Origin: a virus
Direction: 5' to 3' (one strand)
IMG/VR virus record: IMGVR_UViG_3300032024_000018
Location: 1-38,175 of that record
Length of the DNA: 38,175 nt
This document shows, piece after piece, positions 1-38,006 of this stretch. Made by a program: the position numbers and the translations under genes. The notes beneath the pieces are model-generated. The model saw only the letters and a list, made by a program, of their open reading frames with translations, was not told the DNA's origin and did no database searches. Position 1 is the stretch's first letter. Every line of letters starts with the position of its first letter.

Positions 1-55
1 TTGCTCTGCGTACGCAAGAGCCAAGACTACAACCAAACCGCCGCGGACATGGATC
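1..55. repeat. 55-bp exact duplicate of 38121..38175 (contig-end overlap; circular or circularly permuted genome)
   Basis: Bases 1-55 (ttgctctgcg...ggatc) are identical to the last 55 bases. An ORF reads through the junction in frame. Confidence 0.95.
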
Positions 56-258
56 CGCACAAGATCGATCGGTCGTCGTACTTCCCATTTGGTGCAGTGA
101 GCTATGCTCAGATGCTCCATACAAAGTCTCAGCGCTTCAACTCGCTGGTCCTCAAAGAGATGCGTGGCCAAGACGCAAACTTTGAAGGCCTGCGTGACAC
201 GGCGTTGGACATCATCAACTATGCTGGCTTCTTTGCTGGCGCCTGCACAAAGGACTGA
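1..258 (+). CDS. DUF1599 / nucleotide-modification-associated-domain-like protein, 3' part (gene starts at 38007 and crosses the junction; 123 aa in total)
   Basis: The ATG at 38007 is in frame with 1..258 through the end duplication. Motifs KSQDYN, FPFG, HTKSQRFNSL and FEGLRDTALDIINYAGF match my memory of DUF1599. Stop is TGA at 256-258. Confidence 0.6.
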   Translation: MLCVRKSQDYNQTAADMDPHKIDRSSYFPFGAVSYAQMLHTKSQRFNSLVLKEMRGQDANFEGLRDTALDIINYAGFFAGACTKD

Positions 259-260
259 TC

Positions 261-1043
261 ATGGACTTCTCAAGAACTTGGCTCGATGCCATCGACGACA
301 TCTTGACCAACGGTGACCCAGTGGCGCCTCGTGGCAAGATGACTCGTGAGATGCCACAACGCACCATGGTGGTAGACATGCGCCGCCCGGTGCTTCGTGT
401 ACCTGATCGCAGCCTGAGCTACAAGTTCATGGCAGCTGAGGCCTTCTGGATCCTGTCTGGCGATGACCGTGTCGAGACCATCTCGCCTTACAACAGCCGC
501 ATCAAGGACTTCAGTGACGACGGTGAACGCTTCTTCGGTGCCTACGGCCCCAAGATCAAAGCTCAACTGCCTTACATTGTTGAGAAACTGATGGCCGATG
601 AAGACAGTCGCCAAGCTGGTCTGACAATCTGGCGTGAGTGCCCACCGCAGACAAAGGACGTGCCTTGCACGGTGGCCATCTTCTTCAACATCCGCAACGG
701 CAAACTCAATGCCCATGTGTTCATGCGGTCGAGCGATGTCTGGCTGGGCGTTCCATATGACGTCTTCAACTTCAGCATGCTCAGCCATTTGGTCTGTGGC
801 CTGCTGAATGAGCATCGGAAGTTTGAAAATGCAGTAAAGCCTGGACGCCTCTTTTTGACGGCTGCTTCAAGCCACCTGTACGAGACCAATTGGGCCGATG
901 CCAAATTGTGCTTGGCCAGTGAGGTCCTCGACCAACCTGAGACAGACACCCTGCTCTGGAACGATGCACAGCACCTGATGAAAGTCTTGGCAGCCTTGCG
1001 TGAGACCAAGGCTGGTGATTCACTACGTTGGTGGGAGAACTAA
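261..1043 (+). CDS. Thymidylate-synthase (ThyA) family enzyme with a dCMP-hydroxymethylase-like active site (pyrimidine dNMP C5 hydroxymethylase or methylase)
   Basis: ATG at 261 follows AAGGA. ThyA motifs seen: AAEAFWIL (Glu60), GAYGPK, DSRQ, VPC136T, FMRSSD159, LGVPYD167VFNF, SSHLY. Asp sits where ThyA has Asn177, and Thr follows the catalytic Cys. Confidence 0.8.
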   Translation: MDFSRTWLDAIDDILTNGDPVAPRGKMTREMPQRTMVVDMRRPVLRVPDRSLSYKFMAAEAFWILSGDDRVETISPYNSRIKDFSDDGERFFGAYGPKIKAQLPYIVEKLMADEDSRQAGLTIWRECPPQTKDVPCTVAIFFNIRNGKLNAHVFMRSSDVWLGVPYDVFNFSMLSHLVCGLLNEHRKFENAVKPGRLFLTAASSHLYETNWADAKLCLASEVLDQPETDTLLWNDAQHLMKVLAALRETKAGDSLRWWEN

Positions 1044-1044
1044 G

Positions 1045-1539
1045 ATGAGACTCAGTCGCGACGAATGGGCCCTCAAGTTGGCCTTGCTCACTGCTCAGAG
1101 AACGACCTGCTGCCGCCGTGCCGTGGGCTGTGTCTTGCTGAATGCCCGTGGCCACGTGCTCTCAACCGGGTACAACGGCGTCGCGGCTGGGCTTTCTCAC
1201 TGCAATCACATGGAGGTCGTCACTGACAATGACGGCCACAACACCTATGTGGTTGAGGTCTTCCCTCACGCCTGCTCAGGAGCCAAGGCGCCGAGCGGCA
1301 CGAATCTCGATGGCTGTCAGGCGATCCACGCAGAGCAGAATGCCTTGCTCCAGTGCCGCGACATGTATGCCATCCACACAGCCTACGTGACGGCCAGTCC
1401 ATGCATGACCTGCTGCAAGTTGCTGTTGAACACGAGCTGCCAGCGGATCGTCTACGTGGAGGAGTATCCTCACTCGGCGGCCAAGGATCTGTGGACTGGT
1501 GCCGGGAGGGCTTGGGAGCAGCTTCTTGTGGAGCTTTGA
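1045..1539 (+). CDS. dCMP deaminase (cytidine/deoxycytidylate deaminase zinc-binding family)
   Basis: HAEQNAL and PCMTCCKLL zinc-binding motifs. ATG at 1045 follows GGGAG. The ORF-track start at 1000 overlaps the upstream gene and lacks an RBS. Confidence 0.85.
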   Translation: MRLSRDEWALKLALLTAQRTTCCRRAVGCVLLNARGHVLSTGYNGVAAGLSHCNHMEVVTDNDGHNTYVVEVFPHACSGAKAPSGTNLDGCQAIHAEQNALLQCRDMYAIHTAYVTASPCMTCCKLLLNTSCQRIVYVEEYPHSAAKDLWTGAGRAWEQLLVEL

Positions 1540-1639: not shown

Positions 1640-2137
1640 TCATTCCCTGTTCAGTTGCCGGGTCCAGTCATAGCAGGTTTTGGCGTATTGGGCTGCTCTG
1701 TCAGCGTCGCGGGCGAATTCAAGAAGAAACTCCGAAGCCTCAACTGAAAGTTCGGTTCCAGTGGAGCCAGTCTCAGGCTGGGCGGAGGTTGTGGGGTCTG
1801 TGGACACGGTGCTACCACAACTCGGCCGACGTCCTGGGTCGCGCAGCCCGCCAAGCTCACGAGTGAGACGACGATTGGTAAACAGAGCCTTGTCGAGCTT
1901 TTGTTCACTTTCCACATGTTTCATCTCCAGTTGTGCTGCCAGCTCATTCTGGCGCCGTTCAGCCGAAATGGCTCTATCAGTTGCCGCTTGCAGTTGCTCT
2001 GCGGCCTCAACCTTTTGCTTCTCAATGGAAGCTGTCCATGAGGCATCTTTGTACTTGGCTGTCAGGTACCAAGAACCAAACGCCCCAACACCAAGGCCAA
2101 TGACCGCTATCAGCAAAGTTGTTTTGAGGTCAAGCAT
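1640..2137 (-). CDS. i-spanin (Rz-like)
   Basis: N-terminal TM segment LLIAVIGLGVGAFGSWYL, then a long charged coiled-coil region. It is the last gene of the lysis cassette and contains an embedded lipoprotein ORF. Confidence 0.8.
   Translation of the reverse strand: MLDLKTTLLIAVIGLGVGAFGSWYLTAKYKDASWTASIEKQKVEAAEQLQAATDRAISAERRQNELAAQLEMKHVESEQKLDKALFTNRRLTRELGGLRDPGRRPSCGSTVSTDPTTSAQPETGSTGTELSVEASEFLLEFARDADRAAQYAKTCYDWTRQLNRE
1651..1917 (-). CDS. o-spanin (Rz1-like lipoprotein), fully embedded in the i-spanin gene in another frame
   Basis: ATG at 1917 follows GGAG. Signal peptide with lipobox VSLAGC. The mature part is Pro-rich with one extra Cys (APCPQTPQPPP). Confidence 0.75.
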   Translation of the reverse strand: MWKVNKSSTRLCLPIVVSLVSLAGCATQDVGRVVVAPCPQTPQPPPSLRLAPLEPNFQLRLRSFFLNSPATLTEQPNTPKPAMTGPGN

Positions 2138-2333
2138 TTGACTTGCTCAAACTGAGCCCTTGGGTTGTCACAATACGCAGAACGGCATTGACGACAGGCA
2201 ATCCAACAGCAACAATGGTGTAAAAGTGTGGCGGCAGAAAAGGTTGGAGCATCCCAGTTCCTGCCTCGAGCGCAACCAAAGTCGCAACAATTGCGTTGAC
2301 CCAAAGGGTCTTCGATAAGTACCAAGCTTTCAT
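2130..2333 (-). CDS. Two-TM holin-like membrane protein (67 aa)
   Basis: Internal ATG at 2333 forms an ATGA overlap with the endolysin stop. Sequence MKAWYLSKTLWVNAIVATLVAL...FYTIVAVGLPVVNAVL gives two hydrophobic helices. Confidence 0.6.
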   Translation of the reverse strand: MKAWYLSKTLWVNAIVATLVALEAGTGMLQPFLPPHFYTIVAVGLPVVNAVLRIVTTQGLSLSKSNA

Positions 2334-2713
2334 GGGTATTCCTTCCAAGGTAGTTGCCAATGTGGCCCGTCTTTGAACGTCGTCCAGTCGCCGCCCCATT
2401 CAATTGGGATCTGCAACTCGGCGGCGGCCTGCTTGACGGAAACAGCAAGCTTGTGATATAAAGGCCAGTCCCAGCGAACCGAGCCGGCCACGTAAGCACC
2501 GAGATCAACGGCGTGGCCAGTCAAGTGGCGCGACCTCATGGTCTGACTGGCGCCTGCTTTGACGAGTTGATCTTGACGAGTCTTGGAGCGAACTCCTTCG
2601 AGCACGGCAAAATCAATCTCAGTTATCTCGATGGCGCGCTCAACAACCTTGACAAGGTCCGGGTGGACCCCAGCAAGGCGGTCTTGCGACTTTTTGCTGA
2701 GGTTGTAGGTCAT
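2330..2713 (-). CDS. Endolysin, peptidase M15 (L-alanyl-D-glutamate / VanY-like zinc peptidase)
   Basis: Zn-ligand motifs SRHLTGHAVDL and DGPHWQL. It sits inside the lysis cassette with ATGA overlaps on both sides. Confidence 0.85.
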   Translation of the reverse strand: MTYNLSKKSQDRLAGVHPDLVKVVERAIEITEIDFAVLEGVRSKTRQDQLVKAGASQTMRSRHLTGHAVDLGAYVAGSVRWDWPLYHKLAVSVKQAAAELQIPIEWGGDWTTFKDGPHWQLPWKEYP

Positions 2714-2964
2714 GGCTTGTCTGCCTTCTTATCGATTTTGTCCTCGATGCGATCAAGCTTTGTGAACAAGGCCGTGACCGCAGTTGAGAACTCCTCCTTT
2801 TTGACGTAGGCTCCGGCCACCAACACCTCAATTTCAGAGACCTTGTTTGCGAGCTCCTTGTCTGCAACTTGGAGGTCCTTGACAGCTTGCCAAACAGCGT
2901 TTAGCAAGAACCCAATCAACCCACCAAACCCAGTGAGCATCCAATTGACTATTGTCTGGTCCAT
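2710..2964 (-). CDS. Single-TM membrane protein with a coiled-coil, charged C-terminus (holin/antiholin candidate)
   Basis: TM segment VNWMLTGFGGLIGFLLNAVW. AAGGAG RBS. Translationally coupled to the endolysin. Confidence 0.45.
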   Translation of the reverse strand: MDQTIVNWMLTGFGGLIGFLLNAVWQAVKDLQVADKELANKVSEIEVLVAGAYVKKEEFSTAVTALFTKLDRIEDKIDKKADKP

Positions 2965-2967
2965 GTG

Positions 2968-3315
2968 TTACACTCCTTGACCTGGAGTGATGTAAACTGT
3001 CGCGGCAGCTGAGGCAAGTCCACTAAAAAATGCCGCTTCGCCAAAACTTAAAATCTCAACGGCGCCTGGCACGAGCACAATGGCTGGTGATGGCGTACCA
3101 GCCACAGGGGCGGTAGCATTACTTTGGGCAATTGTCGCAGTAGAACCAACCCCTAGAAAAACATTGACTGAACCTGAGTTAACAACTCGGTATTGCCCAG
3201 AATTTAATTGGGCACTATTTGCAACGGCTTGGATACCAAGTGGGGCGACGGCGTCCGCAGACACAGCAATGGGTTTTCCCAGTGGGCTGAATGCAATTTG
3301 TGAATTGGCTGACAT
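2968..3315 (-). CDS. Hypothetical protein, Ala/Gly/Ser/Val-rich and beta-rich (probable virion-associated)
   Basis: ATG at 3315 follows AAGGAG. The ORF-track start at 3417 would overlap the upstream gene. Confidence 0.5.
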   Translation of the reverse strand: MSANSQIAFSPLGKPIAVSADAVAPLGIQAVANSAQLNSGQYRVVNSGSVNVFLGVGSTATIAQSNATAPVAGTPSPAIVLVPGAVEILSFGEAAFFSGLASAAATVYITPGQGV

Positions 3316-3316
3316 G

Positions 3317-3556
3317 TTAAGCTCCTTGTGATATTTTGTAAGACGCAATGACGTCGTTAGTGTGTACTGCTGCGCATATGGCCTTAATGCGCGTGTCATC
3401 ACCTTCATAATTTTCACCGGGCGCTATCACACGGCGGTGAAACGACTGGCTGAGGACGTTGCCATCCTCCACGACGCGGGTCGCGGTGCGAACTTGCACG
3501 CAGCCATTTTCTTTGACTTCGATACTGTCAACAATAGTGAGTTTTTCGAGTGCCAT
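3317..3556 (-). CDS. Small protein following the tail-fibre gene (MALEK... N-terminus; possible fibre accessory/chaperone)
   Basis: It shares the initiation region ATGGCACTCGAAAA with the gene at 4336. It lies immediately downstream of a fibre gene. Confidence 0.5.
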   Translation of the reverse strand: MALEKLTIVDSIEVKENGCVQVRTATRVVEDGNVLSQSFHRRVIAPGENYEGDDTRIKAICAAVHTNDVIASYKISQGA

Positions 3557-3566
3557 TTTGATTTCC

Positions 3567-4076
3567 TTAAGCTGTTTGGTAGACGACCATGCCGTCGATG
3601 ATTTTTGAAGAAAAAGAAGAGTTTACTATTGCAGAACCGTCGTAGCGAAACGGCACAAACTCGGTTGATCCTCCAGAGTTTGCAAGACTGAATGCGATGT
3701 TTGAGTCTGTGTACCGCAGACCACTTCCTTGATGCTGTTGTGCTCCACCAGACCCCGAAACAAATGGAAGGCCTCCGATTGTCGATGCGCTTGCATTTGC
3801 AGTTGCTGGATAAATAATCCTGAATGTTGCAACGACAAGTCTTCCGACTTTTGTATACCAACCAGCGGCAGTTGCAAACGCCAGCCCTGCACCACTTGCA
3901 TCGGTTGGCGTCCAAGTTCCCTCTTCGTAATCGTCCAGAAGTTCACTGGTCATTCCAGGTGCGGACGGGTCAATCGAAAAGTCGATTCCTTTTCCTGCAG
4001 TGCCGATGACAAGGTTACCGTTGGTGATTGTCTGATCACCAAATCTTGTTGATGGGTTTCCGACTGTTTTCAACAT
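3567..4076 (-). CDS. Tail fibre / receptor-binding protein (short)
   Basis: The LLDDYEEGTWTPT motif and Gly/Ser-rich beta-type composition are common in phage fibre distal domains. Adjacent to the tailspike gene. Confidence 0.6.
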   Translation of the reverse strand: MLKTVGNPSTRFGDQTITNGNLVIGTAGKGIDFSIDPSAPGMTSELLDDYEEGTWTPTDASGAGLAFATAAGWYTKVGRLVVATFRIIYPATANASASTIGGLPFVSGSGGAQQHQGSGLRYTDSNIAFSLANSGGSTEFVPFRYDGSAIVNSSFSSKIIDGMVVYQTA

Positions 4077-4078
4077 GA

Positions 4079-4336
4079 TCAGCAGTCCTTTGCGTTTTCA
4101 AACTCTGGCAGCGTTTTCAGATGCTCATATGCTTGAGCAATCGGATTCTCGCCTGCCAGGTCATATGCAGACTCGTATGGGGAATCAACAAACGCCGGCA
4201 CTCCAGAATCATCTTTGTACGACCTGACCATGTAGGAGATGGTTGTTTTGCTTTTCACTTGCAAACCTTCTACCCTGTGATAAGCGTTTTGCGCCTCAAA
4301 ACCTTGTGGAGCTTGAACTGTCTTTTCGAGTGCCAT
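4079..4336 (-). CDS. Small protein following the tailspike gene (MALEK... N-terminus; possible accessory/chaperone)
   Basis: ATG at 4336. The upstream extension in the ORF track overlaps the tailspike 3' end. Same initiation region as the gene at 3556. Confidence 0.5.
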   Translation of the reverse strand: MALEKTVQAPQGFEAQNAYHRVEGLQVKSKTTISYMVRSYKDDSGVPAFVDSPYESAYDLAGENPIAQAYEHLKTLPEFENAKDC

Positions 4337-4350
4337 GATTTTCCTTTCGA

Positions 4351-6474
4351 TTAAGCTGCAACGTTTGCCATTGCTTTCCAAGTGCCGGGTGTGCCACCAG
4401 TAGTGCAAACCCACCCAGGTGTACCACCGGCAGATGGTGTGTTGTTCCAGATGATGTCACCACGCGACCACTCGCCAGCAGCAGGCGTAGAGGCCGCGTA
4501 GGTCTGCACGTTCTGCGGGTAGCTGGGCATTGTGACGCTGGGCAGACTCTTGCCGATCCAGAGTTCAAGCTGGTACAACTTTAGAGCAGCGGTATCCGCA
4601 GAGCCAGAAAACTGCACACCCATTGTGGTCGGGTTGACTGTCTGCGCTGTTACAGGCAATGCAAGACGAAAGTCAGTATTTGAATCAACCGGTGCCCATA
4701 CCTTGCCGCCGCCAATGCTGCTGCCGTTGAACAAGAACGACATTTCCAATGTGCCAGACGGGATGTTTGGCAACGTGCCTCGCACGACCACGAATATCTG
4801 ACCACCCTGCGGAAAGTTACCACGCAGACGGCCTTGAAACAACGCCTGCAATGTGCCAGCACTTGGGTTGATGTAGAGGCCACGACCAAATGCTGCATCG
4901 ACAGTGGGAACGATTGTCGTACCGCCGAATGCCTGAGCCAGCACCTTGCCCGGATCAGGATACCCACCGTCAAATGCCCACAGCAACTCAGACTGCTGGT
5001 TGTTGTGGCTGGTAGCCGTGAACGGCTCATTCCCAACGCCTGCTGCTGGAGAGTTTGAACAGTTGTCGAACGTAAATTGCGGGTTGTTGATTGCCGTACC
5101 GGGGACGCGGTAATTGCAATTGGTCAACTTTACCTGACACATGTAGTCAGACAAAATAAAGTAATTTTGCAGCGGGTCAGTAGTTCCAGAAAAAGTTGTG
5201 TCGTGGAACTCAATCGCTGCTTTTTCATCAAGGCGAAACGGTGCTGCTGCTCCATTATTTAAAACTGGAGCAATGAACAACGAACGTCCACTGACTTGAT
5301 AGACCGAGTACAGAAGTGGGTTGCCAGTGACCTCAATCCAGAATCCCCTGAATGTAGCCGTAATGAAACGAACCCAGTCAACGTCGTGTGCATTTTGCAA
5401 GAACAGCGCAATCCATCCACTGGATGGAACAGATGGCTCAATCAGGAAATTTGTCGCTTGCAACTGACGAACGCCAGTCAACTTGCAGATGACCTTTTCT
5501 GTGTTTGCTGGCATCGAACCTTCAACGTCACAGTTCTCAATCAGCATAAACGTGGCGATGAGCGCCGTGGTTGTCGAGTGAAAGCTGCCAGAGTTTGTGA
5601 AACGAATGTTTCGGTAAGTGCTCAGTTGGAAATAGGTTCCAGCAAGGTAAACGAACGGGCGTTCAACAGCGACGAAGTGGACGTTGTCGAACACGTGCTT
5701 AACCGAACCCGCAGACTGAACAAAGAACTTACGATCCAGCACATACTGAGCGCAAGCAAACTGAAGGTTGTTGACCGTCAGTTGGTTTCCAGCAGATTGA
5801 TGGTAGAAAAAGCTGTTCGGGTCAATGCTGTCAAGCAAAACACAAGAGCCTTCAATGGTGTTGGCGGTGTTGGCGGCGTAGTCAAGACTCTCACCAAACA
5901 TCACCACACTGCCAGTGGACGAATTGGTGTACCCAGACGTGATTCGATACTTTCCCGCCGGGAAGTACACAGCACCACCGACCGCCTTAGCAGCATCAAT
6001 AGCCGCATGAACAGCCACAGTATCGTCGGCTACACCATCACCGACTGCATTGAACGGTGCGTTCTTGACGTTGATGATGGCCTGCAAAGCCAGGCCTGCA
6101 GAGCCTTGCGGATACGATGCAGACTGGTCGAAGGTGACACTACCAGCATCGACTCCAGAAACCACGATTTCGTTGTAGCGCTCGGTTGCTGTCGGCGCGC
6201 TGTAGACCATGCTGCCTTTCTTGCTCATCACGCGAATGCTGTAGTCGCTGTTGACATACAAGCGTGCAGGCGTGCCGCTGTTGGCCGGGTAGCCAGCCAG
6301 CGTGTGAATGGGCTGCGCAGCAGGCAGCGTCAACGCAGCGTCCCAATACACGTTGATTGGGTTGGTTTGAGGGTCAAGATTAGCCGTGCCGATCCAGACA
6401 TAGCCATCCTCAAGAGGTTGGCCATCAATGTCCGTAAAAATCGGGTAAGTTGGTTGAATACTAAGCGCTGACAT
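4351..6474 (-). CDS. Tailspike with P22-gp9-like head-binding N-terminus and pectate-lyase-type beta-helix (probable polysaccharide depolymerase)
   Basis: N-terminus PIFTDIDGQPLEDGYVWIGTANLDPQTNPINVY resembles the P22 tailspike N-domain. NAVGDGVADDTVAVHAAIDAAKAVGGAVYFPAGKYRI is the pectate_lyase_3 signature. C-terminus has GWVCTTGGTPGTW. Confidence 0.85.
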   Translation of the reverse strand: MSALSIQPTYPIFTDIDGQPLEDGYVWIGTANLDPQTNPINVYWDAALTLPAAQPIHTLAGYPANSGTPARLYVNSDYSIRVMSKKGSMVYSAPTATERYNEIVVSGVDAGSVTFDQSASYPQGSAGLALQAIINVKNAPFNAVGDGVADDTVAVHAAIDAAKAVGGAVYFPAGKYRITSGYTNSSTGSVVMFGESLDYAANTANTIEGSCVLLDSIDPNSFFYHQSAGNQLTVNNLQFACAQYVLDRKFFVQSAGSVKHVFDNVHFVAVERPFVYLAGTYFQLSTYRNIRFTNSGSFHSTTTALIATFMLIENCDVEGSMPANTEKVICKLTGVRQLQATNFLIEPSVPSSGWIALFLQNAHDVDWVRFITATFRGFWIEVTGNPLLYSVYQVSGRSLFIAPVLNNGAAAPFRLDEKAAIEFHDTTFSGTTDPLQNYFILSDYMCQVKLTNCNYRVPGTAINNPQFTFDNCSNSPAAGVGNEPFTATSHNNQQSELLWAFDGGYPDPGKVLAQAFGGTTIVPTVDAAFGRGLYINPSAGTLQALFQGRLRGNFPQGGQIFVVVRGTLPNIPSGTLEMSFLFNGSSIGGGKVWAPVDSNTDFRLALPVTAQTVNPTTMGVQFSGSADTAALKLYQLELWIGKSLPSVTMPSYPQNVQTYAASTPAAGEWSRGDIIWNNTPSAGGTPGWVCTTGGTPGTWKAMANVAA

Positions 6475-6492
6475 TATTGGTTCTCCTTATGG

Positions 6493-8391
6493 TTATTCGC
6501 CAAGAGCCTTCTTGACTTTTGCACGTGTTTTTGCATCTTTAATACCTTTCGTCAATAATCTAAAACTTGTCATAACAGGTGCTGGGACTCCAGCCGTCCC
6601 ACTAATAGCAATGTCCATCATGCCCGCCAAAACACTTGCAGTGTTGCTTGTGTTTACGCTACCAGGAGGCGCGACAAGCACGTCTTTGGCCACGTCGTTG
6701 ATGATACGAAGTTGCTCAGCTCCTTTCTTGCCAAACACAAAGTCAAGTTTCCCAGACTTGTCAAGTTGGGTAAGGACGCGGTCAAGCTGACCTGGTGACA
6801 GAATTGGGTTTCCAAGTTCATCTCGGCCCACGCCTTTAGTGGCCTCGTCACGCAAGAACTTGAGCGTACCGCCTTGAAGTTCTTTCCATGCCTGCTGGCC
6901 GTTTGGTCCTTCAGTTTGAAGCAGGCGACGAACTTGACGGACCGTGTCAAGAGATGTTGATGGGTCGATGACTGAGCGGCGTAGGACGTCCTCCATGGCA
7001 ATGGAACGATCATTTGAGCCGCGCTTTTGACCAAGAAGATTTTTCACCAGACCGATGTTCTCATAATCACTGCCAAACCGGGCTCTTGCTGCGCGAGCTT
7101 GCTTGTACATGTTACCACCCAGACCTTCAGTTGAAGCGTCAATGAGACTGCGCATCTGTGAGGCTTGCATGATGTTGGTTGGCTCAGCGTTCGTGGCGCC
7201 ACCGATCGATCGGCGGAACAACTCGGCGGTCTTCAAAGTGACAGGCTGGGCAATCAAAGTACCGTCTGGAGCTTCAGTTGCCACACCAAGCTGCAAGGCT
7301 TTGGCACGAGTTGCTTTGAGTACGTTGGCAACCTCAGCTTCAGGCGCGTTGTCGACCAAATGCTGGACTACCGTGTCAAGTTTGACAGGTGCTTCCATCT
7401 CGCCAGCCTTTTCAGCCTCCTTGTACAAGGTGCGTATACGCGTCTTATCGCGGGCAGCTCGATCACGAAGCGCCTTGTCCACGGTCAAGCCAATGGAACG
7501 CAAGTCAGGAGCTTCGGCTCCAGTCATGTCAATGAAAGTCTCAAGGTTTTGCTGAAGCTGCTTGTTCTGAGTGGCGAAGCGCTCACGGATGGGCGCCCCA
7601 ACCTCAGGCAGCTTGGCAGTCTCGCGCTCGAAGCGCTGCTGCTCAAACTGGCGCATCTTCTGGCCTTCAGTCAGCTTGATTGGCACAGGCAACTCATCGG
7701 CTTTGGCTTGGCGCAGAGTGGCCATATCCACACCAGCTGAACCACCAGATGCCTGAGTGCCAGGGGTGGGTTTCTTGGCAGTTGCGCCAGGCATGATTTC
7801 GCGGATTGGTTCGGCAGCTTTGGCCACAGCCTGGCCAGCTCGCTTGGTGGCCGCCACGACAGGAGCGGCTACACGACCTGCAGTTGCTGCGACAACTGGC
7901 GCTGCCATCTTGGTGCTGGCTGCCACGGCTCCGATTGGACCAACAACTGGGATGACAGGAGGGACGTTCTGGAGCACTTCGCCGACCGCCTGTACTTGTT
8001 CTTGACCTGACTGAGTGCGAGGAGCGTAGGTCAATGCCTGAGCTCCCTGCATGGCTGACTTTTGGACCAGGTTTGCCGCCTCTTGACTGCCGAATTGGCC
8101 TGACAGGATCTGCTCAGCCAAACCTTTCAGCGTGCCGCCAATAAGACCTGCGGTACCACCGACGGCACCAGTTCCTATGGTCAATGCAGCTTCACCGGCA
8201 CCGACGATCTTCTCACCAATAGAAGGTTCAACGTACTCAGGAGTCGTTCCTGGCACGATGGTATCTGGGATCTGGTTCGTGGTGTCTTGGCGCGCCTTGA
8301 CAAGCACAGCCGCCAAGCGCCGAGCAGCATCAAGGTCGCCAGCCTTGTCGGCGTTGACCAAGGCTTGCTCAAGTTCTTGGAGTGTTGCCAT
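6493..8391 (-). CDS. Large internal virion / ejection-type protein (632 aa)
   Basis: Position is between the tailspike and other ejection-like genes. Ala/Gly-rich segments and long helical regions. No enzymatic motif recognised. Confidence 0.4.
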   Translation of the reverse strand: MATLQELEQALVNADKAGDLDAARRLAAVLVKARQDTTNQIPDTIVPGTTPEYVEPSIGEKIVGAGEAALTIGTGAVGGTAGLIGGTLKGLAEQILSGQFGSQEAANLVQKSAMQGAQALTYAPRTQSGQEQVQAVGEVLQNVPPVIPVVGPIGAVAASTKMAAPVVAATAGRVAAPVVAATKRAGQAVAKAAEPIREIMPGATAKKPTPGTQASGGSAGVDMATLRQAKADELPVPIKLTEGQKMRQFEQQRFERETAKLPEVGAPIRERFATQNKQLQQNLETFIDMTGAEAPDLRSIGLTVDKALRDRAARDKTRIRTLYKEAEKAGEMEAPVKLDTVVQHLVDNAPEAEVANVLKATRAKALQLGVATEAPDGTLIAQPVTLKTAELFRRSIGGATNAEPTNIMQASQMRSLIDASTEGLGGNMYKQARAARARFGSDYENIGLVKNLLGQKRGSNDRSIAMEDVLRRSVIDPSTSLDTVRQVRRLLQTEGPNGQQAWKELQGGTLKFLRDEATKGVGRDELGNPILSPGQLDRVLTQLDKSGKLDFVFGKKGAEQLRIINDVAKDVLVAPPGSVNTSNTASVLAGMMDIAISGTAGVPAPVMTSFRLLTKGIKDAKTRAKVKKALGE

Positions 8392-9686
8392 TAGCGGGCT
8401 CCCCGCGTGTACTTCTTCACAAGCGCGTCGATGTCACCACCAGACGTACTCACAGCTGGCGTGTCAGGAATGGTCTCCGGTAGACCTGCGCGCGCAGTCA
8501 TGTTCTTGCGTGCCTTCATGACCAGGCGCTGGGCTTCCTTAACATTCTCAAGCAGGCGTTCAGGAGACTGCTTCAAACTGAAGTTCTGCAAGGCAGCTTG
8601 AAGCTTGTCACCTTCGGCGTTGGACAGGGCGCCCATGCCTTTGATGTTCGGGATCTGGGCCATGAAAGCCTGTGAACCAAGCGTCTCAACCAAGGCCTCG
8701 AAGTCAGCAGTGTCCTGTGTGAGGGTGGGCATGCGCGACGACACTGGGCCGGCAGCCGAACCAATCACGCCGATGGGAGTCTTTAAGATGCGGTCAGCAG
8801 TGTTGAGCATGTTGTCCATGCCAGACCGAACAGCTTCAAGGTCGGCAGCCTTGGCTCGCACGGCATCATCGCGCTTCTGAATGTGCTCTTGAAGCTTGAT
8901 CTGGTTTTCCTCGCGTTTGACCTGGTTGCCCTCGCGAGCAATCTGAGCATTGAGGGCGGCGATCGAAGCGTTCTGCTTGGCGATCTTGATGTCCTCTTGA
9001 ATCTTGGTGATGTCCCAACCTTTCTTCTGCAGGTCAAGCACGGCACCTGACTCAGCAAACTTGGCATCGACTGCGGCCTTCTGGGCTTTGGCCTGAGATT
9101 CAGTCAGTTTCGACGGTTGAAGTTCTGCATCACGTTGCTCGCCTTGAAGCTTAGTGAATGTTTCTGTGAACTTGTCAGGACCCATGGCCGATGCCAGGAA
9201 GAGACCTATGGAAGTCTTGGCCGTCTCGGGACTGGTCTTGATCAACACACCAAGGTCCTCAAGCGTCTTGGCTTTGCGCTCCTGTCCGGAGTTGCGGTAG
9301 GCTGTGGCTTGCTCAGTCAACAATTGTTGGGCAATCTCGGGTTTACCAGATTGGAGTGCGGCGTAGACCTGGGTGGCTTGACCCAAACGTGAATCCTTCT
9401 GCTCGGTGCTCAGCACATCGTAGGTGCGCTTGAAGTTCTCGCTCAGGCTGGGGTACTTGACCATCATGCTGGCCAAGGCCGACGGCGTCGGATTTTTAGA
9501 CAAGGTGCCGAGGTCGGCTTCCATCTGCGCCTGAGTCTCGCGAGCCTTTTGTAAGTCAAGAGCTTTTTGCTCAGCCAGATTGCGCTGCGACATCATGTTG
9601 GAAATGTTTAAGGCGTTTTGAACGCCACCCATGACCGATTGCGTCGGGTCTGGGACGTTGAGCATGTAGTTAAATGGTTGGGCCAT
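8391..9686 (-). CDS. Coiled-coil internal virion / ejection-type protein (431 aa)
   Basis: Highly helical, Gln/Ala/Lys/Glu-rich sequence. TAATG coupling to the downstream gene. Confidence 0.4.
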   Translation of the reverse strand: MAQPFNYMLNVPDPTQSVMGGVQNALNISNMMSQRNLAEQKALDLQKARETQAQMEADLGTLSKNPTPSALASMMVKYPSLSENFKRTYDVLSTEQKDSRLGQATQVYAALQSGKPEIAQQLLTEQATAYRNSGQERKAKTLEDLGVLIKTSPETAKTSIGLFLASAMGPDKFTETFTKLQGEQRDAELQPSKLTESQAKAQKAAVDAKFAESGAVLDLQKKGWDITKIQEDIKIAKQNASIAALNAQIAREGNQVKREENQIKLQEHIQKRDDAVRAKAADLEAVRSGMDNMLNTADRILKTPIGVIGSAAGPVSSRMPTLTQDTADFEALVETLGSQAFMAQIPNIKGMGALSNAEGDKLQAALQNFSLKQSPERLLENVKEAQRLVMKARKNMTARAGLPETIPDTPAVSTSGGDIDALVKKYTRGAR

Positions 9687-9688
9687 GA

Positions 9689-10333
9689 TTAGAACACCTT
9701 CAAAGCTTTGAGCGTGGCGATATTGCCGATGGTTCCGCCGATGTTACCCCACATCTGTGCTTGCGCCTGACCCTGGGCCAAAGCTGCACCAGCGGCTGCC
9801 TGGCCTTGCTGAGTCAGGGCATTGCCGATGTTGGCGCCCGTCTGCTGGGCTGCAGCTGCTTGGCCAGCAGCCGAAGCTTGGCCAAGGCCGGAGATGGTAC
9901 CAAGTTTGCTAAACTGTGACTCGATCAACTGACTGAGCAACTGCGGCCGAAATTGAGCAAGTGTTGCTTGGACGTTACCGCCGCGCAATCCGCCAGTAGC
10001 TGAGGCATTCTGCAAAATGGCGTTCTCACCTTGCTTCATCATGGACTGGAACTGAAGACCAGACTCAAGTGCTGAGATGGCTTGTTGCTGAGCTGCTGGT
10101 CCTGCAAGACCAAGAAGACCTTGTTGACCACCTATGGCTTGTTCACCTGCACCAACGTAAGGTGCCAACAGTTTCTGAACGGCGTCAAATTGGCGGCGTT
10201 GCTCCTCGATTGATGCTTGGCTAGATGCCGTCTGGGCACCTGCTGCTGCCGACGCCGCATCAGACTGGGCGTTGCTGGCCATCGCACCTGTGATGACCGA
10301 TCCGGCCACAACGGCCGTTGCGATTCCACTCAT
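9689..10333 (-). CDS. Gly/Ala/Gln-rich protein with an N-terminal hydrophobic segment (ejection-protein candidate, 214 aa)
   Basis: ATG at 10333 forms an ATGA overlap with the upstream stop. IATAVVAGSVITGAM is followed by AQ/GQ repeats. Confidence 0.45.
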   Translation of the reverse strand: MSGIATAVVAGSVITGAMASNAQSDAASAAAGAQTASSQASIEEQRRQFDAVQKLLAPYVGAGEQAIGGQQGLLGLAGPAAQQQAISALESGLQFQSMMKQGENAILQNASATGGLRGGNVQATLAQFRPQLLSQLIESQFSKLGTISGLGQASAAGQAAAAQQTGANIGNALTQQGQAAAGAALAQGQAQAQMWGNIGGTIGNIATLKALKVF

Positions 10334-11196
10334 TGGGTTTCTCCTTCGATTAAATTGATGCCCGAGAGGGCGAGGGCTTGGCGGTAGTCGACTGTGACCT
10401 CTTCGCCTTGGCTGCCACCAGCGCAACCAGCAATTCGCCGAATGGCCACAAGCCAGATGTCGCCGCTTTCGTCCTTGACAAACTTGGCGTTGGGGTCCTT
10501 TGCGTGGTTAGTGTACCGGCCAGCAGGTGTGCGCATGCCGTCAATCCGAGCCGGCGCAATGACTTCACCACTGTCAACTGGTGCGCTTAAAAAGACGCCT
10601 TTGCCCTCAATGGCCGAGTCTCGCACAGTGAACTTTGCAGCAAAGCCACTTGGCATGGGTATTTGGTCATGAGGATTTTCTGACTGGGCTCGCACCGAAG
10701 CTGGGGTAAAACCGGCAAGTCGAACAACAAGTTCAAAGTCCTCGCGGTCCTCGCGGCGATGGTATGTCTCAAGCTGCTTGGCAACTTCGGCATGAGCCTG
10801 CCACGTGGCACTTTTGTCAAGGAACATGGACTCAAGCTTGTCGATGTCGCGCTCCTCAGTGGCGTAGACGTTTTGCCAAATGCATGTCTCGAGGACGTAA
10901 CCAAGCTTGCGGCCAGGCTTACCCACAAAGATCATTGGTGCGCGCAGCACCTTGGTTTGGCCGTCGTCGCCGACCATGGCAACTGCGCCAGTCAGCATGA
11001 TGTTGAGGTGGTCAAACCGTTGCGCGTGGCCGATGGCAAGAGTGCCGGCAGGCAAGGTGACTTCGCGGATGTAGATACCCGGGCCGAAGTGGTGGACAAC
11101 TGGGCACTCGACTTGAGGCAAGTCCAGAAAATGTGACTCAACCTGCTCAATCTTGGCAGGGTCCGCAATAATGTGGGATTTGGCTTCAGCCAGCAT
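10330..11196 (-). CDS. Cupin-like N-terminal domain fused to a C-terminal SET domain (putative protein lysine methyltransferase)
   Basis: Strong RBS AAAAGGAGAG. SET motifs IEGKGVFLSAPVDSGEVI, YTNHAKDPNAKF (NHxxxPN) and GEEVTVDY (aa ~186-272, nt ~10381-10641). N-terminal HHFGPGIYIREVTLPAGTLAIGHAQRFDHLN is cupin-like (nt ~10882-11109). Confidence 0.75.
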   Translation of the reverse strand: MLAEAKSHIIADPAKIEQVESHFLDLPQVECPVVHHFGPGIYIREVTLPAGTLAIGHAQRFDHLNIMLTGAVAMVGDDGQTKVLRAPMIFVGKPGRKLGYVLETCIWQNVYATEERDIDKLESMFLDKSATWQAHAEVAKQLETYHRREDREDFELVVRLAGFTPASVRAQSENPHDQIPMPSGFAAKFTVRDSAIEGKGVFLSAPVDSGEVIAPARIDGMRTPAGRYTNHAKDPNAKFVKDESGDIWLVAIRRIAGCAGGSQGEEVTVDYRQALALSGINLIEGETQ

Positions 11197-11253
11197 TCAA
11201 ACTCTCCTTTTCAGGGCGGTATGAGCTGCTGGCTGCTCGTTAGGCTCAGCTGC

Positions 11254-11304
11254 TGTGGTATCTAGTACCACAGGTGGTCAGATACTAACACGCATCTGAC
11301 CACC
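11254..11304 (-). terminator. Two adjacent hairpins in the 118-bp gap upstream of the cupin-SET gene (attenuator or processing/stability element)
   Basis: tgtggta-tctag-taccaca (11254-11272), then ggtggtcagat-actaacacgc-atctgaccacc (11273-11304; 11-bp stem). There is no clear U-tract on the minus strand. Confidence 0.4.
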
Positions 11305-11314
11305 TTGTAAACCA

Positions 11315-11650
11315 TCAGGTTATTTCGCGGCCACTAGCTCGGATTGTCAAAGACGTGACGGCCCCGGCTATTGTGGAAATGAAGCCGCCTGGCTCTAACA
11401 CCTGGCCCACAAGTTCTGGGAAGGTGTATGTCTCACCTGGTGCCACAGCCCTGGCATTCACAACCAAGTTACTGACTCCAGCAGTCCCACCAGATGCCAC
11501 AAGATTAACGCTCAGAGTGACGTTGGCTGCACTTGTGTTTGTGGCAGTAAACTTGTCAATGATGGTTTTACAGTTTGTGGCCGTATACTGAGTGGTTTGA
11601 GCATTTTCAGCCTGCTTTGATTGGACGAGTGTTTTGACTAGGACTGACAT
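11315..11650 (-). CDS. 111-aa beta-rich protein, paralogue A of a tandem pair (tail/virion-associated?)
   Basis: AAGGAG RBS. Shares NT..., V.V.LV.SGGTAG.SN and LTI.ASG.E with the neighbouring 111-aa ORF. Confidence 0.55.
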   Translation of the reverse strand: MSVLVKTLVQSKQAENAQTTQYTATNCKTIIDKFTATNTSAANVTLSVNLVASGGTAGVSNLVVNARAVAPGETYTFPELVGQVLEPGGFISTIAGAVTSLTIRASGREIT

Positions 11651-11660
11651 TTCATTCTCC

Positions 11661-11996
11661 TTAAATTGCTTCAGCGCCGCTGGCTGTGATTGTCAAGCCG
11701 GCCGAAGCCGCTTGGATTTGAATAGTCTCACCCGCATTCATAACCTGGACGCCGTTGTATTGAAGCGAGTTGTTGGCAGGTACGGCGACGTCATATAGAA
11801 ACGCATTACTAGTTCCAGCAGTTCCAGCCGATGGAACCAAGAACACGCGTACATTGATGGATGCGCCAGTTGTGTTGGCAATGCTGAACTCCTTAAGCAT
11901 TGTACGTGTACTGGCCGGGACAGTGTAAAGTATGGTTACACCTGTTGTGACGGCCGCCTGGCCAAGTTTTGTTGGTACGATGTTTTGATAGGTCAT
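11661..11996 (-). CDS. 111-aa beta-rich protein, paralogue B of a tandem pair
   Basis: ATG at 11996 overlaps the upstream TAA by 1 nt. Same length and conserved blocks as 11315-11650. Confidence 0.55.
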   Translation of the reverse strand: MTYQNIVPTKLGQAAVTTGVTILYTVPASTRTMLKEFSIANTTGASINVRVFLVPSAGTAGTSNAFLYDVAVPANNSLQYNGVQVMNAGETIQIQAASAGLTITASGAEAI

Positions 11997-13003
11997 TACA
12001 TGCTCATCCATTCAAGCACCTGCACAGCAGATGCCGGTCTATTTTCCCACCGACTTTGGCTTGCGTCATAGACAAGCAGGTCAAATTCGTTGGGGCCTCC
12101 ACCATTCAGATAAACGTCTTGAAGATTGCTTAGTGACTTACTTAACTCCATGCGGACAAAGACAGACCCTGGACCACCTGATCCGGCATTCACCACAACT
12201 GCAACTGGGACAGCTATATTTGGTGCTACAGGTTGGACGTTTGTCCAAGTGCCTGGTATTGCAGGATCGAAGTACAACAGGTCACCGTCGCTCCAGACCT
12301 CTCCGTATGGGGCGCCAGTCGTGTTAAAGCCACGCACCAAACCAAAGCTGGTCACGTAGCCAAAAGCATTGTCGTCAATGTCCTGAGTGGCCACGCCCAT
12401 CATGTATTCAACAGGAACTGACCCGTCGGCAACGGCCAGGCCAAATGTCAACTTACCAGAGGCCCCAATGGTACCAGTGAACATCACTGTGGAACCGTTG
12501 GTGATCAACGCACCGCTTGTGTTCTTGGCGTAGTAGTGAATCTCTTGTCCTACTTGTAGCACGCTGCCACCATACAACCCGACATCCATGGTGCCATCAT
12601 CACGGTTCCATTGCACTCGGCGTGCCTGAGTGATATGCGGTCCGATCTCAGACAGGTCAATGTAATCCGTCACAACCGAGTTGTTGTTCTGGATAACGGG
12701 GGCAGTGGCCAACATCTCTAGCGCGTTGGCAATGCGGCCAAGTGCGTCAAGAGCTTGTACGGCTTTTTGGTCAGCTGCGCCACTGTCGATGGCGGCATCT
12801 TGAGCAAGTCTGACAATCTGAGCCAAGGCTTCATTTGCAACCGCTCCAGCGTTGCCTGCTTGGATGCTGATGCCAGTTGTGTCAGAACTTGGAGACACCT
12901 CGTCGACAACTTGAATGAGTTTCTCAAACTGTTTGACCAACTCATGGTTCTTGAGGAACGTAGCAAGTTGGTCTCGAGTGAAATTAAGTTTCTGAGTGGC
13001 CAT
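11996..13003 (-). CDS. Needle/fibre-like protein: N-terminal coiled coil plus C-terminal beta domain (335 aa)
   Basis: ATG at 13003; the track start at 13009 is TTG. Helical heptad-like N-terminal ~100 aa. It follows the gp10-like gene, where P22 has gp26. Confidence 0.45.
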   Translation of the reverse strand: MATQKLNFTRDQLATFLKNHELVKQFEKLIQVVDEVSPSSDTTGISIQAGNAGAVANEALAQIVRLAQDAAIDSGAADQKAVQALDALGRIANALEMLATAPVIQNNNSVVTDYIDLSEIGPHITQARRVQWNRDDGTMDVGLYGGSVLQVGQEIHYYAKNTSGALITNGSTVMFTGTIGASGKLTFGLAVADGSVPVEYMMGVATQDIDDNAFGYVTSFGLVRGFNTTGAPYGEVWSDGDLLYFDPAIPGTWTNVQPVAPNIAVPVAVVVNAGSGGPGSVFVRMELSKSLSNLQDVYLNGGGPNEFDLLVYDASQSRWENRPASAVQVLEWMSM

Positions 13004-13005
13004 GA

Positions 13006-14409
13006 TCAATACGCCAGTGGTTCAAGTTGCGCCTCAAGGCGAACAAACGAGATGTGAGCTTGGCTGTCACCCCTGAACCGCTGTATTCTCCAATTGCGCA
13101 TGTGACCTTGTTGGAGCCACACCAATCGCTTTTTCGTATTGCCAGTCGTTCCCGCACGGATTATTCTGTCTTGGCTCCAGGCCATACCATCAACAGAATA
13201 ACTTGTTGAGATGGTGGGGTCGGCGCCAATTGCAGTGCGCCCAGTCAAAGCAACAAGTTCGAGTTCATTGAAGATGGCACCACGGCCTTCGTTGTAGACA
13301 ACCAACGTTCCAAATTCCCAACGTACAATCTGGCCCCAATGGCTGCTGATGTCTTGTGACATGTAACCAATCACTGAGGATTGAGGATCGCCAACCAACC
13401 ACTTGCCGTAGGCCCAGACAAAGTTCTTGGCTCTGAACTGATTAAATCCTGCAGTGCTTGTTGTCAATGTGAACCAAACATGCTCTTCAAGTACGCCAGA
13501 CGCTGCGGCGTCGTAGACTAAGGTTCGGTCAGGAAGGTGGACATACAGATGCTGGTGGCTTTTGTCATTACGCGCCTCAAGTTTTACAGCAGCAAGTTGG
13601 CCCTCAGTATATTGGAGCAGTATCTGGTCGATTTCTTGAGTGCTGATCTTATTTGCAGTGGCATTGGCACCAAGGTAAATGCCCGGCTCTTCATTGCGCC
13701 CACTACCAAGAAAGGCAACTGTCTCAACAAAGACACAGCAGGCAAATGTGCCGAGTACGCCCTTTTGAACCTGCGCTCCATCAATACGTTGGAATGGGAA
13801 GAAGTCGCCACCGACGTTGTCAAAAACCTCAATGGTGTTGCGGTTTAGGGCATAGATCTCATTGCGCAATTTCACAAGTGCTACAACAGGATCAGGATCA
13901 GCTTCAGAACTGCCGTACTTTAGTGGGTTGACCTGAGTTGGATCGTTTAGCTCAGTGATGACAAGACTCGACCCATCCGTCGTCATGAAGTAGCCATCAA
14001 CCCAAACAACATCAAGCACAACGCCAAGATCTGGGTCGGTCACTTGAGTAAGCGAGCCGTTCCAATAGTACAGACGACCTCCTGACGCAATGGCCAGGCG
14101 GTCAAAGCTGCAGTCAAATGAGACTAAACTGTCAACTGTCCCGCCAACGTCTCCAAGTACTATTACGGTGCCATCACCGGCTACTGTTACAAGCTTGGTC
14201 CCCATGACCCGGTAACACACGCCGTTCCAGTTGATGCCGCCGCGATCCACGCCAGGACCAGAGCCGTCAGATACCAATCCATCGGCAGGACGCAAAAACC
14301 CATTGCTGATACCAGACTGCTTCGGCACTGGAACCATGTTGACAGGGTAACTTGTACGCAGCTCAGGTTCACTCCCTGCGTAGATGCCATTTAGGATTGG
14401 GATCTGCAT
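13006..14409 (-). CDS. P22 gp10-like tail hub / packaged-DNA stabilisation protein
   Basis: N-terminus MQIPILNGIY...SYPVNMVPVPKQSGISNGFLRPADGL parallels the P22 gp10 N-terminus (PVNM...PK...GYLR..PG). Size 467 aa against ~470. Confidence 0.7.
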   Translation of the reverse strand: MQIPILNGIYAGSEPELRTSYPVNMVPVPKQSGISNGFLRPADGLVSDGSGPGVDRGGINWNGVCYRVMGTKLVTVAGDGTVIVLGDVGGTVDSLVSFDCSFDRLAIASGGRLYYWNGSLTQVTDPDLGVVLDVVWVDGYFMTTDGSSLVITELNDPTQVNPLKYGSSEADPDPVVALVKLRNEIYALNRNTIEVFDNVGGDFFPFQRIDGAQVQKGVLGTFACCVFVETVAFLGSGRNEEPGIYLGANATANKISTQEIDQILLQYTEGQLAAVKLEARNDKSHQHLYVHLPDRTLVYDAAASGVLEEHVWFTLTTSTAGFNQFRAKNFVWAYGKWLVGDPQSSVIGYMSQDISSHWGQIVRWEFGTLVVYNEGRGAIFNELELVALTGRTAIGADPTISTSYSVDGMAWSQDRIIRAGTTGNTKKRLVWLQQGHMRNWRIQRFRGDSQAHISFVRLEAQLEPLAY

Positions 14410-14419
14410 TCAGTTCACC

Positions 14420-14875: not shown

Positions 14876-14884
14876 GGTGCCTCC

Positions 14885-15367: not shown

Positions 15368-15369
15368 GA

Positions 15370-15699: not shown

Positions 15700-15730
15700 T
15701 TGGTGTCCTCAGATGAATTGATCAACAGGT

Positions 15731-15756
15731 TGAAGAAAGGGGCCGAAGCCCCTTCC
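15731..15756 (-). terminator. Rho-independent terminator/attenuator after the coat gene
   Basis: The minus strand reads AAGGGGC-TTCG-GCCCCTT followed by TCTTCA. It starts 11 nt after the coat stop. Confidence 0.7.
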
Positions 15757-15766
15757 CTCAATCAGC

Positions 15767-17044: not shown

Positions 17045-17067
17045 GATTGGCTCCTATTTAATGTGGT

Positions 17068-17967: not shown

Positions 17968-18032
17968 TTCAATGACCCCATTCAAAACTCACCCATTAAA
18001 GCGGCTGGGTGGGAACCGCATAAACAAAGATC

Positions 18033-20111: not shown

Positions 20112-20120
20112 GGTGGTTCC

Positions 20121-32641: not shown

Positions 32642-32651
32642 GGAGATGAAA

Positions 32652-37989: not shown

Positions 37990-38006
37990 CTCGTAAAGGA
38001 ACTGAT

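Follow-up and report, generated by a model that had tools for sequence, protein, structure and literature searches.

A predicted T4 gp42-like deoxycytidylate 5-hydroxymethylase in the nucleotide cassette of a circular phage genome

Why should a phage that encodes its own flavin-dependent thymidylate synthase also keep a gene of the ThyA family? This question is raised by the open reading frame (ORF) at positions 261..1043 (plus strand, ATG-to-TAA, 260 aa) of the IMG/VR record IMGVR_UViG_3300032024_000018, a stretch of 38,175 nucleotides that is called the window below. The window holds a complete circular phage genome of 38,120 base pairs (bp), as its positions 1-55 are repeated exactly at 38121-38175 in the form of a 55-bp direct repeat. 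A preliminary description of this DNA had proposed that the gene encodes a deoxycytidylate (dCMP) 5-hydroxymethylase, or else a 5-methylase, and that a bona fide ThyX encoded elsewhere in the genome made it dispensable for the synthesis of thymidylate (dTMP). The ThyX gene is indeed found at 25474..26139 (plus strand), and its product matches PF02511 (E 1.6e-37) and TIGR02170 (154.6 bits, with a cutoff of 87.9) and carries the RHRSFSFQEFSQRY motif, so that the ThyA-like enzyme is not needed to make dTMP. The analysis presented here indicates that the gene probably encodes a folate-dependent dCMP 5-hydroxymethylase similar to gp42 of phage T4, a synthase of 5-hydroxymethyl-dCMP (5hm-dCMP), and that the DNA of this phage very likely contains modified cytosine. 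The enzyme class, its diagnostic residues and its gene neighbourhood have all been described before, in T4 and in metagenome screens of recent years.

Membership in the ThyA family was confirmed, together with all the motifs and codons first cited for this ORF, by matches to PF00303 (Thymidylat_synt; E 1.5e-22, 80.4 bits, cutoff 24.3) and to the thymidylate-synthase families of PHROG (E 4e-41). The product stays under every cutoff of the NCBIfam thymidylate-synthase equivalogs, its best scores being 63 bits where 174.55 are required and 58 where 327 are. A canonical dTMP-forming ThyA was ruled out on these scores, on the residues Asp, Thr, Met and Asp found in place of Leu143, His147, Gln165 and Asn177, and on the lack of a ThyA-like C-terminus.

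The active site was compared in a MAFFT L-INS-i alignment that comprised one ViI-like homologue and enzymes whose product is known or has been reported. The reference sequences of Escherichia coli ThyA and T4 gp42 were checked to be identical to the PDB chains 1AOB and 1B49, MilA was represented by residues 9-194 as given in the HMMER output, and the enzymes of RB69 (gp48), SPO1 (gp29), M6 (gp58), the ViI-like Dickeya phage, PaMx74 and Xp12 were translated from GenBank records. SPO1 gp29 is characterised as a deoxyuridylate (dUMP) hydroxymethylase, and M6 gp58 was taken as one. Six positions, 143/146/147/165/169/177 in E. coli numbering, make up the signature used hereafter. A first stretch, at 657..671 on the plus strand, reads Asp133-Val-Pro-Cys136-Thr137 and is unvarying in 34 homologues; it comprises the putative water-activating Asp133 (codon gac, 657-659), equivalent to ThyA L143 and three residues before the catalytic Cys, the catalytic Cys136 itself (tgc, 666-668; ThyA C146), and Thr137 (acg, 669-671) instead of His147. 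A second one, at 723..761 on the same strand, reads Met155-Arg-Ser157-Ser-Asp159 ... Asp167, where Met155 (atg, 723-725) corresponds to Q165, Ser157 (tcg, 729-731) to S167, Asp159 (gat, 735-737) to a retained D169, and Asp167 (gac, 759-761) to N177; Ser157 is linked to deoxyribose preference and Asp167 to cytosine specificity. Arg117 (cgc, 609-611, plus strand) is the equivalent of R126, whereas further equivalences are Glu60 to E58, Tyr95 to Y94, Arg156 to R166, His205 to H207 and Tyr207 to Y209. The HMMER alignment to MilA gave the same register as MAFFT, and both switches read by eye in the preliminary description, Asp at the Asn177 position and Thr after the catalytic Cys, are thereby upheld; a placement of Asn at position 177 is refuted. 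As for what these switches mean, N177D experiments have established that this single change turns thymidylate synthase towards dCMP (PMC8670742; PMC13326640), as had been stated there. Moreover, positions 147 and 177 were the ones that best separated cytosine-modified from unmodified phage contigs in the MetaGPA study (PMC8670742).

When the signatures are set side by side, the 261..1043 enzyme, with D-C-T-M-D-D, is identical at all six positions to T4 gp42, which makes 5hm-dCMP, in line with the T4 likeness first suggested from two of them, and also to MilA, which makes 5-hydroxymethyl-CMP (5hm-CMP). The remaining enzymes read E-C-T-M-N-D (RB69 gp48; 5-hydroxy-dCMP), N-C-P-L-D-D (Xp12 and PaMx74; 5-methyl-dCMP, 5mdCMP), D-C-N-N-D-N (SPO1 gp29, M6 gp58 and the ViI-like enzyme; 5hm-dUMP) and L-C-H-Q-D-N (E. 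coli ThyA; dTMP). The likeness to gp42 (PDB 1B5E, 6A9A) extends to ThyA positions 58, 94, 126, 143, 146, 147, 165, 166, 167, 169, 177, 207 and 209, and both proteins belong to the same fold family and do without a ThyA-like C-terminus; a difference from gp42 is that the window's enzyme has no Trp at the position of ThyA Trp80. T4 gp42 uses Asp145, which stands three residues ahead of its catalytic Cys, to activate the water with which the exocyclic methylene is hydrated, and its D145N mutant is inactive (PMC6400193); the rule of an acidic residue at this position has also been formulated elsewhere (PMC13326640). Asp133 of the window's enzyme would play the same part, and it is together with Met155, Asp159 and the features of Trp80 and the C-terminus described below that it supports the hydroxymethylase side of the original proposal, the methylase side being disfavoured.

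The same residues bear on three other chemistries. A CMP hydroxymethylase of the MilA/BcmA type was rejected, since Ser167 and Arg126 confer deoxyribose preference, and the ribose preference of MilA goes with Ala176 and Lys133 at these positions (PMC5175136), whereas the 261..1043 enzyme has Arg117 and Ser157 as in the deoxyribose enzymes, which judged from the sequence would favour deoxyribose. The enzyme might otherwise be a flavin-dependent synthase of 5-hydroxy-dCMP like RB69 gp48 and DLP3 gp80, whose product would give 5-hydroxycytosine for glycosylation. Asp177, Thr147, Met165 and an acidic residue at 143 are indeed common to the window's enzyme and RB69 gp48, but the mark of those synthases is D169N (PMC13326640) and the corresponding Asp159 is retained here and unvarying in the 34 homologues, so that the enzyme does not belong to them; as glycosyltransferase and NDP (nucleoside diphosphate)-sugar genes did not turn up in the genome scans either, this alternative is judged highly unlikely. 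A dUMP hydroxymethylase feeding 5-hydroxymethyluracil (5hmU) or thymidine hypermodification, as in SPO1, M6 and ViI, was considered as well. GenBank labels the homologue of Pseudoxanthomonas phage PW916 a deoxyuridylate hydroxymethyltransferase, a dCMP deaminase that makes dUMP adjoins the gene, and the window's enzyme has the FSDDG...AYG region and Asp143 in common with SPO1 gp29, M6 gp58 and the ViI-like enzyme (27-30% identity), and with the first two also Gly or Ala two residues before the Tyr and no Trp80. These common features place it by sequence within a wider hydroxymethylase group. However, the SPO1, M6 and ViI-like enzymes have Asn at 147, 165 and 177, which accounts for their uracil specificity, where the 261..1043 enzyme has Thr, Met and Asp. 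Moreover, ThyX is kept, so dTMP would still be made, and no 5-HMUDK or other gene for the later steps of thymidine hypermodification was found in Pfam and PHROG scans of the window's proteins. Including the restriction data discussed below, the uracil reading is very improbable.

More serious is the comparison with the dCMP 5-methyltransferase of the Xp12 type, with which cytosine would be replaced by 5-methylcytosine (5mC) and the deaminase would make thymidine nucleotides from the 5-methyl-dC pool. Asp at N177 is common to the Xp12, PaMx74 and 261..1043 enzymes, and the gene order is parallel, with a MazG and DUF1599-like domain, the thymidylate-synthase homologue and the dCMP deaminase; the protein called X131 here, encoded just upstream of 261..1043, shows 40% identity to the C-terminal domain of a MazG-fusion 'hydrolase' whose gene stands before that of the dCMP methylase in Xp12 and PaMx74 (BLASTP E 3e-21 / 2e-18). 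In addition, five of the seven deaminase-linked N177D thymidylate synthases assayed by New England Biolabs (NEB) gave 5mdCMP (bioRxiv 10.1101/2024.12.05.627091). Against the methylase, the signature D-C-T-M-D-D differs from N-C-P-L-D-D at positions 143, 147 and 165. The 261..1043 enzyme has Ile at ThyA Trp80 and a C-terminus, LRWWEN, that is unrelated to that of ThyA, whereas those of Xp12 and PaMx74 keep Trp80 and end in a ThyA-like manner (YNPKPEVIE; compare YDPHPGIKAPVAI in E. coli). In ThyA enzymes, both Trp80 and this C-terminus take part in closing the active site and in transferring hydride. A dihydrofolate reductase (DHFR) gene comes next in Xp12 and PaMx74, which lack ThyX and the cassette methyltransferase; the window was without DHFR, and its ThyX makes a route from 5mdC to dT unnecessary. 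Hydroxymethylase over methylase is thus clearly favoured, and the Xp12-type reading is regarded as unlikely.

The comparison of structures is consistent with these assignments. The best match of the 261..1043 product in a PDB sequence search is MilA (E 9e-18), and an AlphaFold2 (AF2) model built with the 34 homologues (pLDDT 90.6, pTM 0.90) retrieved MilA chains in all of the top seven Foldseek positions (E 8e-20, TM 0.77, 29% identity), the canonical thymidylate synthases ranking after them (E ~4e-17, ~20% identity) with TM values of 0.72-0.77 over both groups. Sequence and structure searches therefore agree in placing MilA ahead of thymidylate synthases, and with this the comparison to T4 gp42, the Xp12-type and SPO1-type enzymes and ThyA that the preliminary description had called for resulted in a gp42-type signature and a best Foldseek match to MilA. 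MilA/BcmA (PDB 5B6D, 5JNH), which is the nearest solved structure and has an xSxDG...AYGP region in common with the window's enzyme in addition to the signature, is nonetheless ~60 residues longer and works in a Streptomyces antibiotic pathway, not in a phage.

The enzyme is not an isolated case. A collection of 5.8 billion proteins contained 1945 homologues at E<=1e-5, most of them on phage-like contigs of 38-50 kilobases (kb), and when 1.84 billion cluster representatives were searched exhaustively with HMMER, 607 clusters (50% identity) matched at E<=1e-30. The signature residues are unvarying in the 34 homologues (68-100% identity), as are the catalytic residues Glu60, Tyr95, Cys136, Arg156, His205 and Tyr207. 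At larger distances, among the 150 representatives of 50%-identity clusters that lie nearest to the enzyme (41-78% identity), 139 read D-C-T-M-D-D and 145 have Arg126/Ser167 in ThyA numbering. Since the signature is near-universal among its nearest relatives, the 261..1043 enzyme is an ordinary member of a large and coherent clade. In one member, P0242, the ThyA-like enzyme and a MazG domain are naturally fused. Other members of unusual architecture are P0254, P0352, P0363, P0263, P0265, P0350 and P0387: intein-like insertions exactly at the catalytic Cys (DVPC followed by LSGDT...) occur in three family members, N-terminal extensions that are GIY-YIG-like in P0263, P0265 and P0350, and an uncharacterised N-terminal extension of ~190 aa in P0387.

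Independent evidence on the DNA itself comes from the cultured Stenotrophomonas phage AXL3, which encodes a 56% identical enzyme within the same cassette as well as a ThyX. Of 37 restriction enzymes tried on AXL3 DNA, 35 did not cut it and the two that did were TasI (AATT) and Tru1I (TTAA); every tested enzyme with G or C in its site failed, including KpnI and the AhdI isoschizomer Eam1105I; the authors of that work took the gene for an ordinary thymidylate synthase (PMC7504290). In a different study, KpnI and AhdI cut completely the 5mC-containing DNA of Xp12 and not at all the T4gt DNA containing 5-hydroxymethylcytosine (5hmC), whereas ~92% of enzymes cut the 5hmU-containing DNA of SP8 (PMC7653180). 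The resistance of AXL3 DNA to KpnI and Eam1105I thus fits 5hmC or a bulkier base and not 5mC, which counts against the Xp12-type methylase. Similarly, as SP8 DNA is mostly cut, a uracil-based modification cannot explain a DNA that is cut at AATT and TTAA and at no site containing G/C. The AXL3 pattern resembles that of T4gt and not that of Xp12, an indirect argument by analogy for the phage of the window. Resistance at G/C sites could also have been due to 7-deazaguanine, a candidate that was set aside because FolE, QueC, QueD, QueE and DpdA did not turn up in the Pfam and PHROG scans of the window. The paper on phage PW916 contains no restriction or modification data, and no paper was found that puts the particular clade of AXL3, PW916 and this contig to the test.

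The gene neighbourhood is of a kind described for phage contigs with modified cytosine. The 261..1043 gene belongs to a co-directional, tightly packed cassette that runs across the circular junction in the order methyltransferase, MazG-like, X131, ThyA-like and dCMP deaminase. The deaminase gene (1045..1539, plus strand; PF00383 E 7.4e-19, phrog_174 E 1.5e-34) starts 2 nucleotides after the end of the ThyA-like ORF, and it lies directly 3' of the ThyA-like gene in all relatives with the five-gene cassette; in phage HTVC200P a primase takes its place. The MazG-like all-alpha nucleoside triphosphate (NTP) pyrophosphohydrolase (PRA-PH; 37597..37989, plus strand; PF01503 E 4.2e-12, phrog_671 E 1.5e-24) is a putative dCTPase analogue which, with dCTP as predicted substrate, would supply dCMP while depleting dCTP. 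We find the same cassette in ten other contexts, namely AXL3, PW916, a pair of Manatee Spring phage genomes, of which one is from a podovirus with an enzyme only 42% identical, and six metagenomic contigs, including two found with the methyltransferase as the starting point. An N177D thymidylate-synthase homologue accompanied by a dCMP deaminase, PRA-PH and Pol A has been reported as typical of cytosine-modified phage contigs (bioRxiv 10.1101/2024.12.05.627091). The N177D homologues retrieved in screens by MetaGPA and of IMG/VR have these neighbours too (Yang et al. 2021; the 2024 preprint; Lee et al. 2026), and the window differs from them by the presence of a methyltransferase dependent on S-adenosylmethionine (SAM) and the lack of a carbamoyltransferase or glycosyltransferase. 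In T4, too, the hydroxymethylase is accompanied by an all-alpha NTP pyrophosphatase (gp56, whose analogue here would be the MazG-like protein), by a dCMP deaminase and by a second enzyme for thymidylate synthesis, although this is the ThyA-type td and not ThyX, and T4 adds a gp1-type dNMP kinase and glucosyltransferases that the window lacks.

Three observations were made on the cassettes of relatives. In L018 (5355-5714) the PRA-PH/MazG position is occupied by a dUTPase_2 gene (dimeric dUTPase-like), a family that we take to belong to the same all-alpha NTP-pyrophosphatase superfamily, and it looks as if the role in the cassette were conserved and the gene exchangeable. A relative with the full cassette, L019, carries a PF00145 C5-cytosine DNA methyltransferase (267-1328), which is odd if C5 is already substituted. 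Finally, in L010 (7927-8184) a gene for an Acb2/Tad1-hairpin protein, similar to anti-CBASS/anti-Thoeris sponges, lies just 3' of the cassette.

From these elements a pathway can be proposed. The MazG-like enzyme would hydrolyse dCTP to dCMP, as gp56 does in T4, providing substrate and excluding canonical dC. Cys136 might then attack C6 of dCMP, with Asp167 reading and protonating the N3/N4 edge of cytosine, after which the methylene of 5,10-methylene-tetrahydrofolate would move to C5 and Tyr95, together with water, would remove the C5 proton. On the exocyclic methylene so formed, hydration by a water activated by Asp133, with no hydride reduction, would give 5hm-dCMP and tetrahydrofolate (THF); as THF is regenerated, such a hydroxymethylase needs no DHFR. 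In parallel, the deaminase would convert part of the dCMP to dUMP and ThyX the dUMP to dTMP, and since neither these steps nor the hydroxymethylase produce dihydrofolate (DHF), the pathway fits the lack of a DHFR gene in the Pfam and PHROG scans. Phosphorylation of 5hm-dCMP, presumably by a host kinase, and incorporation by the family-A polymerase of the phage would lead to virion DNA with 5hmC or a derivative instead of C, blocking host restriction. As for derivatives, glycosylation or carbamoylation of 5hmC was rejected, because glycosyltransferase and carbamoyltransferase genes were missing from the Pfam and PHROG scans of the window's proteins and the minus-strand block at 1640..21811 consists entirely of P22-like structural and lysis genes.

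The phosphorylation step leads to the slot that separates the MazG-like gene from the ThyA-like one. In most relatives it holds a fusion protein of ~300 aa with a Walker A motif that resembles thymidylate/cytidylate kinases, a kinase-like gene present in AXL3, PW916, MW202621, MW202510, HTVC200P, L010, L012, L016, L018 and L019; the loci L009:31207-31980 and L008:41389-42126 were also part of this comparison. In the window and in its close relative L017 (3552-3992) the slot contains a DUF1599-like protein of 131-146 aa. The gene of the window, X131 (131 aa, plus strand), begins at 37983..38175 and continues across the circular junction into 56..258, its 3' part being annotated as 1..258, of which 1..55 repeats 38121..38175. 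It matches phrog_18404 over its C-terminal half (E 4.8e-18) and DUF1599 only below threshold (E 0.0096; E 0.059 for the L017 homologue), and a literature search on DUF1599 returned only unrelated papers. No dNMP kinase was detected in the window by tblastn with AXL3 gp29, a hidden Markov model (HMM) built from seven of the kinase-like proteins of this slot gave no hit either (--max, best E 0.47), and a Walker A regular expression matched none of the window's ORFs of at least 35 aa. X131 in the kinase position could be a non-orthologous replacement or the result of simple kinase loss, and accordingly either a host kinase serves for phosphorylation of 5hm-dCMP or X131 has some role.

The first cassette gene, at 36764..37597 (plus strand), encodes a class I SAM-dependent methyltransferase (PF13489, Methyltransf_23, E 1e-14). 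It occupies the first position in 11 of 12 contexts that span unrelated podo- and siphoviruses, with identities of 70-85% in the seven closer contexts and 29% in the distant MW202510, and in six of those seven no other cassette protein is as well conserved, the ThyA-like enzyme having identities of 56-83%. In NCBIfam the models that come nearest to the methyltransferase are UbiG/Hen1/CmoB, with scores far under cutoff in each case, which by sequence would point to an O-methyltransferase-like type; a PDB sequence search returned only the Hen1 methyltransferase domain (E 0.0025), and a mediocre AF2 model (pLDDT 70.5) found in Foldseek only generic class I small-molecule/RNA methyltransferases (TM ~0.48). 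Such conservation raises an alternative in which 5hm-dCMP is made as proposed, yet 5hmC falls short of a final or complete replacement, being only partially incorporated for lack of a phage kinase or else processed further, for instance by the methyltransferase. The kinase-less window and the position and conservation of the methyltransferase are in keeping with it, as is the resistance of AXL3 DNA to XbaI and to PdmI, an XmnI isoschizomer, which cut T4gt 5hmC DNA partially. On the other hand, the methyltransferase has only generic similarity to class I enzymes and is not known to act on a nucleotide or on DNA, and the difference in restriction counts for little, given that the digestions were done under different conditions and that 17% glucosyl-hmC is present in T4gt. 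Moreover, a kinase-less state is evidently tolerated, as the close relative L017 also lacks the kinase. We consider this alternative possible, although not probable. A specific version, in which the methyltransferase acts on the 5hm-dC nucleotide or on 5hmC in DNA to give an undescribed hypermodification (such as 5-methoxymethylcytosine or N4-methyl-5hmC), is offered only as a speculative and rather doubtful idea, and linked to it is the possibility that the DUF1599-like protein substitutes for the kinase; no report of methoxymethyl-cytosine in phage DNA was found in the literature.

Returning to the 5hm-dCMP synthase itself, several points weigh against the assignment. T4 and most relatives have a kinase beside the gene, and the window has no dNMP kinase homologue for the route from 5hm-dCMP to 5hm-dCTP. 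Identity is low (23% to T4 gp42, ~30-36% to MilA). The T4 feature Ser94-x-Tyr96, with Ser or Thr two residues before the Tyr, is replaced by Gly93-Ala94-Tyr95; this Ser is however not universal, because SPO1 gp29 (A-P-Y) and M6 gp58 (G-A-Y) do without it. The rule by which Asp or Asn at position 143 separates hydroxymethyl from methyl products is built on few characterised enzymes, and the support from AXL3 is a restriction pattern and not base chemistry.

Outside the cassette, the rest of the plus strand encodes a primase-helicase, a ligase, Pol A, a PD-(D/E)XK nuclease, an exonuclease and a SNF2 helicase. The genes for the PD-(D/E)XK nuclease (31916-32641) and the Rv2179c-like exonuclease (32556-33176) overlap by 86 nucleotides as called, and the true start of the latter is probably an internal Met (MKMEHVM...). 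Two proteins, at 35141-35605 and 36038-36697, have in common a C-terminal domain of ~55 aa (phrog_17205) preceded by Lys/Ala/Pro-rich linkers. In the Rz-like spanin gene, 45 bp at 1833-1877 are 91% identical to Pseudomonas phages Ab18 and Ab20, and this was the only match when the first 12 kb of the window were compared at near-identity with 50,697 phage records; by this search there is no close cultured relative at the DNA level.

If the assignment of the 261..1043 gene is right, an abundant group of environmental phages, represented by the 607 clusters and including cultured Stenotrophomonas and Pseudoxanthomonas phages that are considered for therapy, would have every cytosine replaced by 5hmC or a derivative. 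This would account for the published restriction resistance of AXL3, and it would bear on the sequencing and cloning of such phages as well as on the outcome of their encounters with restriction and Type IV defence systems, and hence on their host range.

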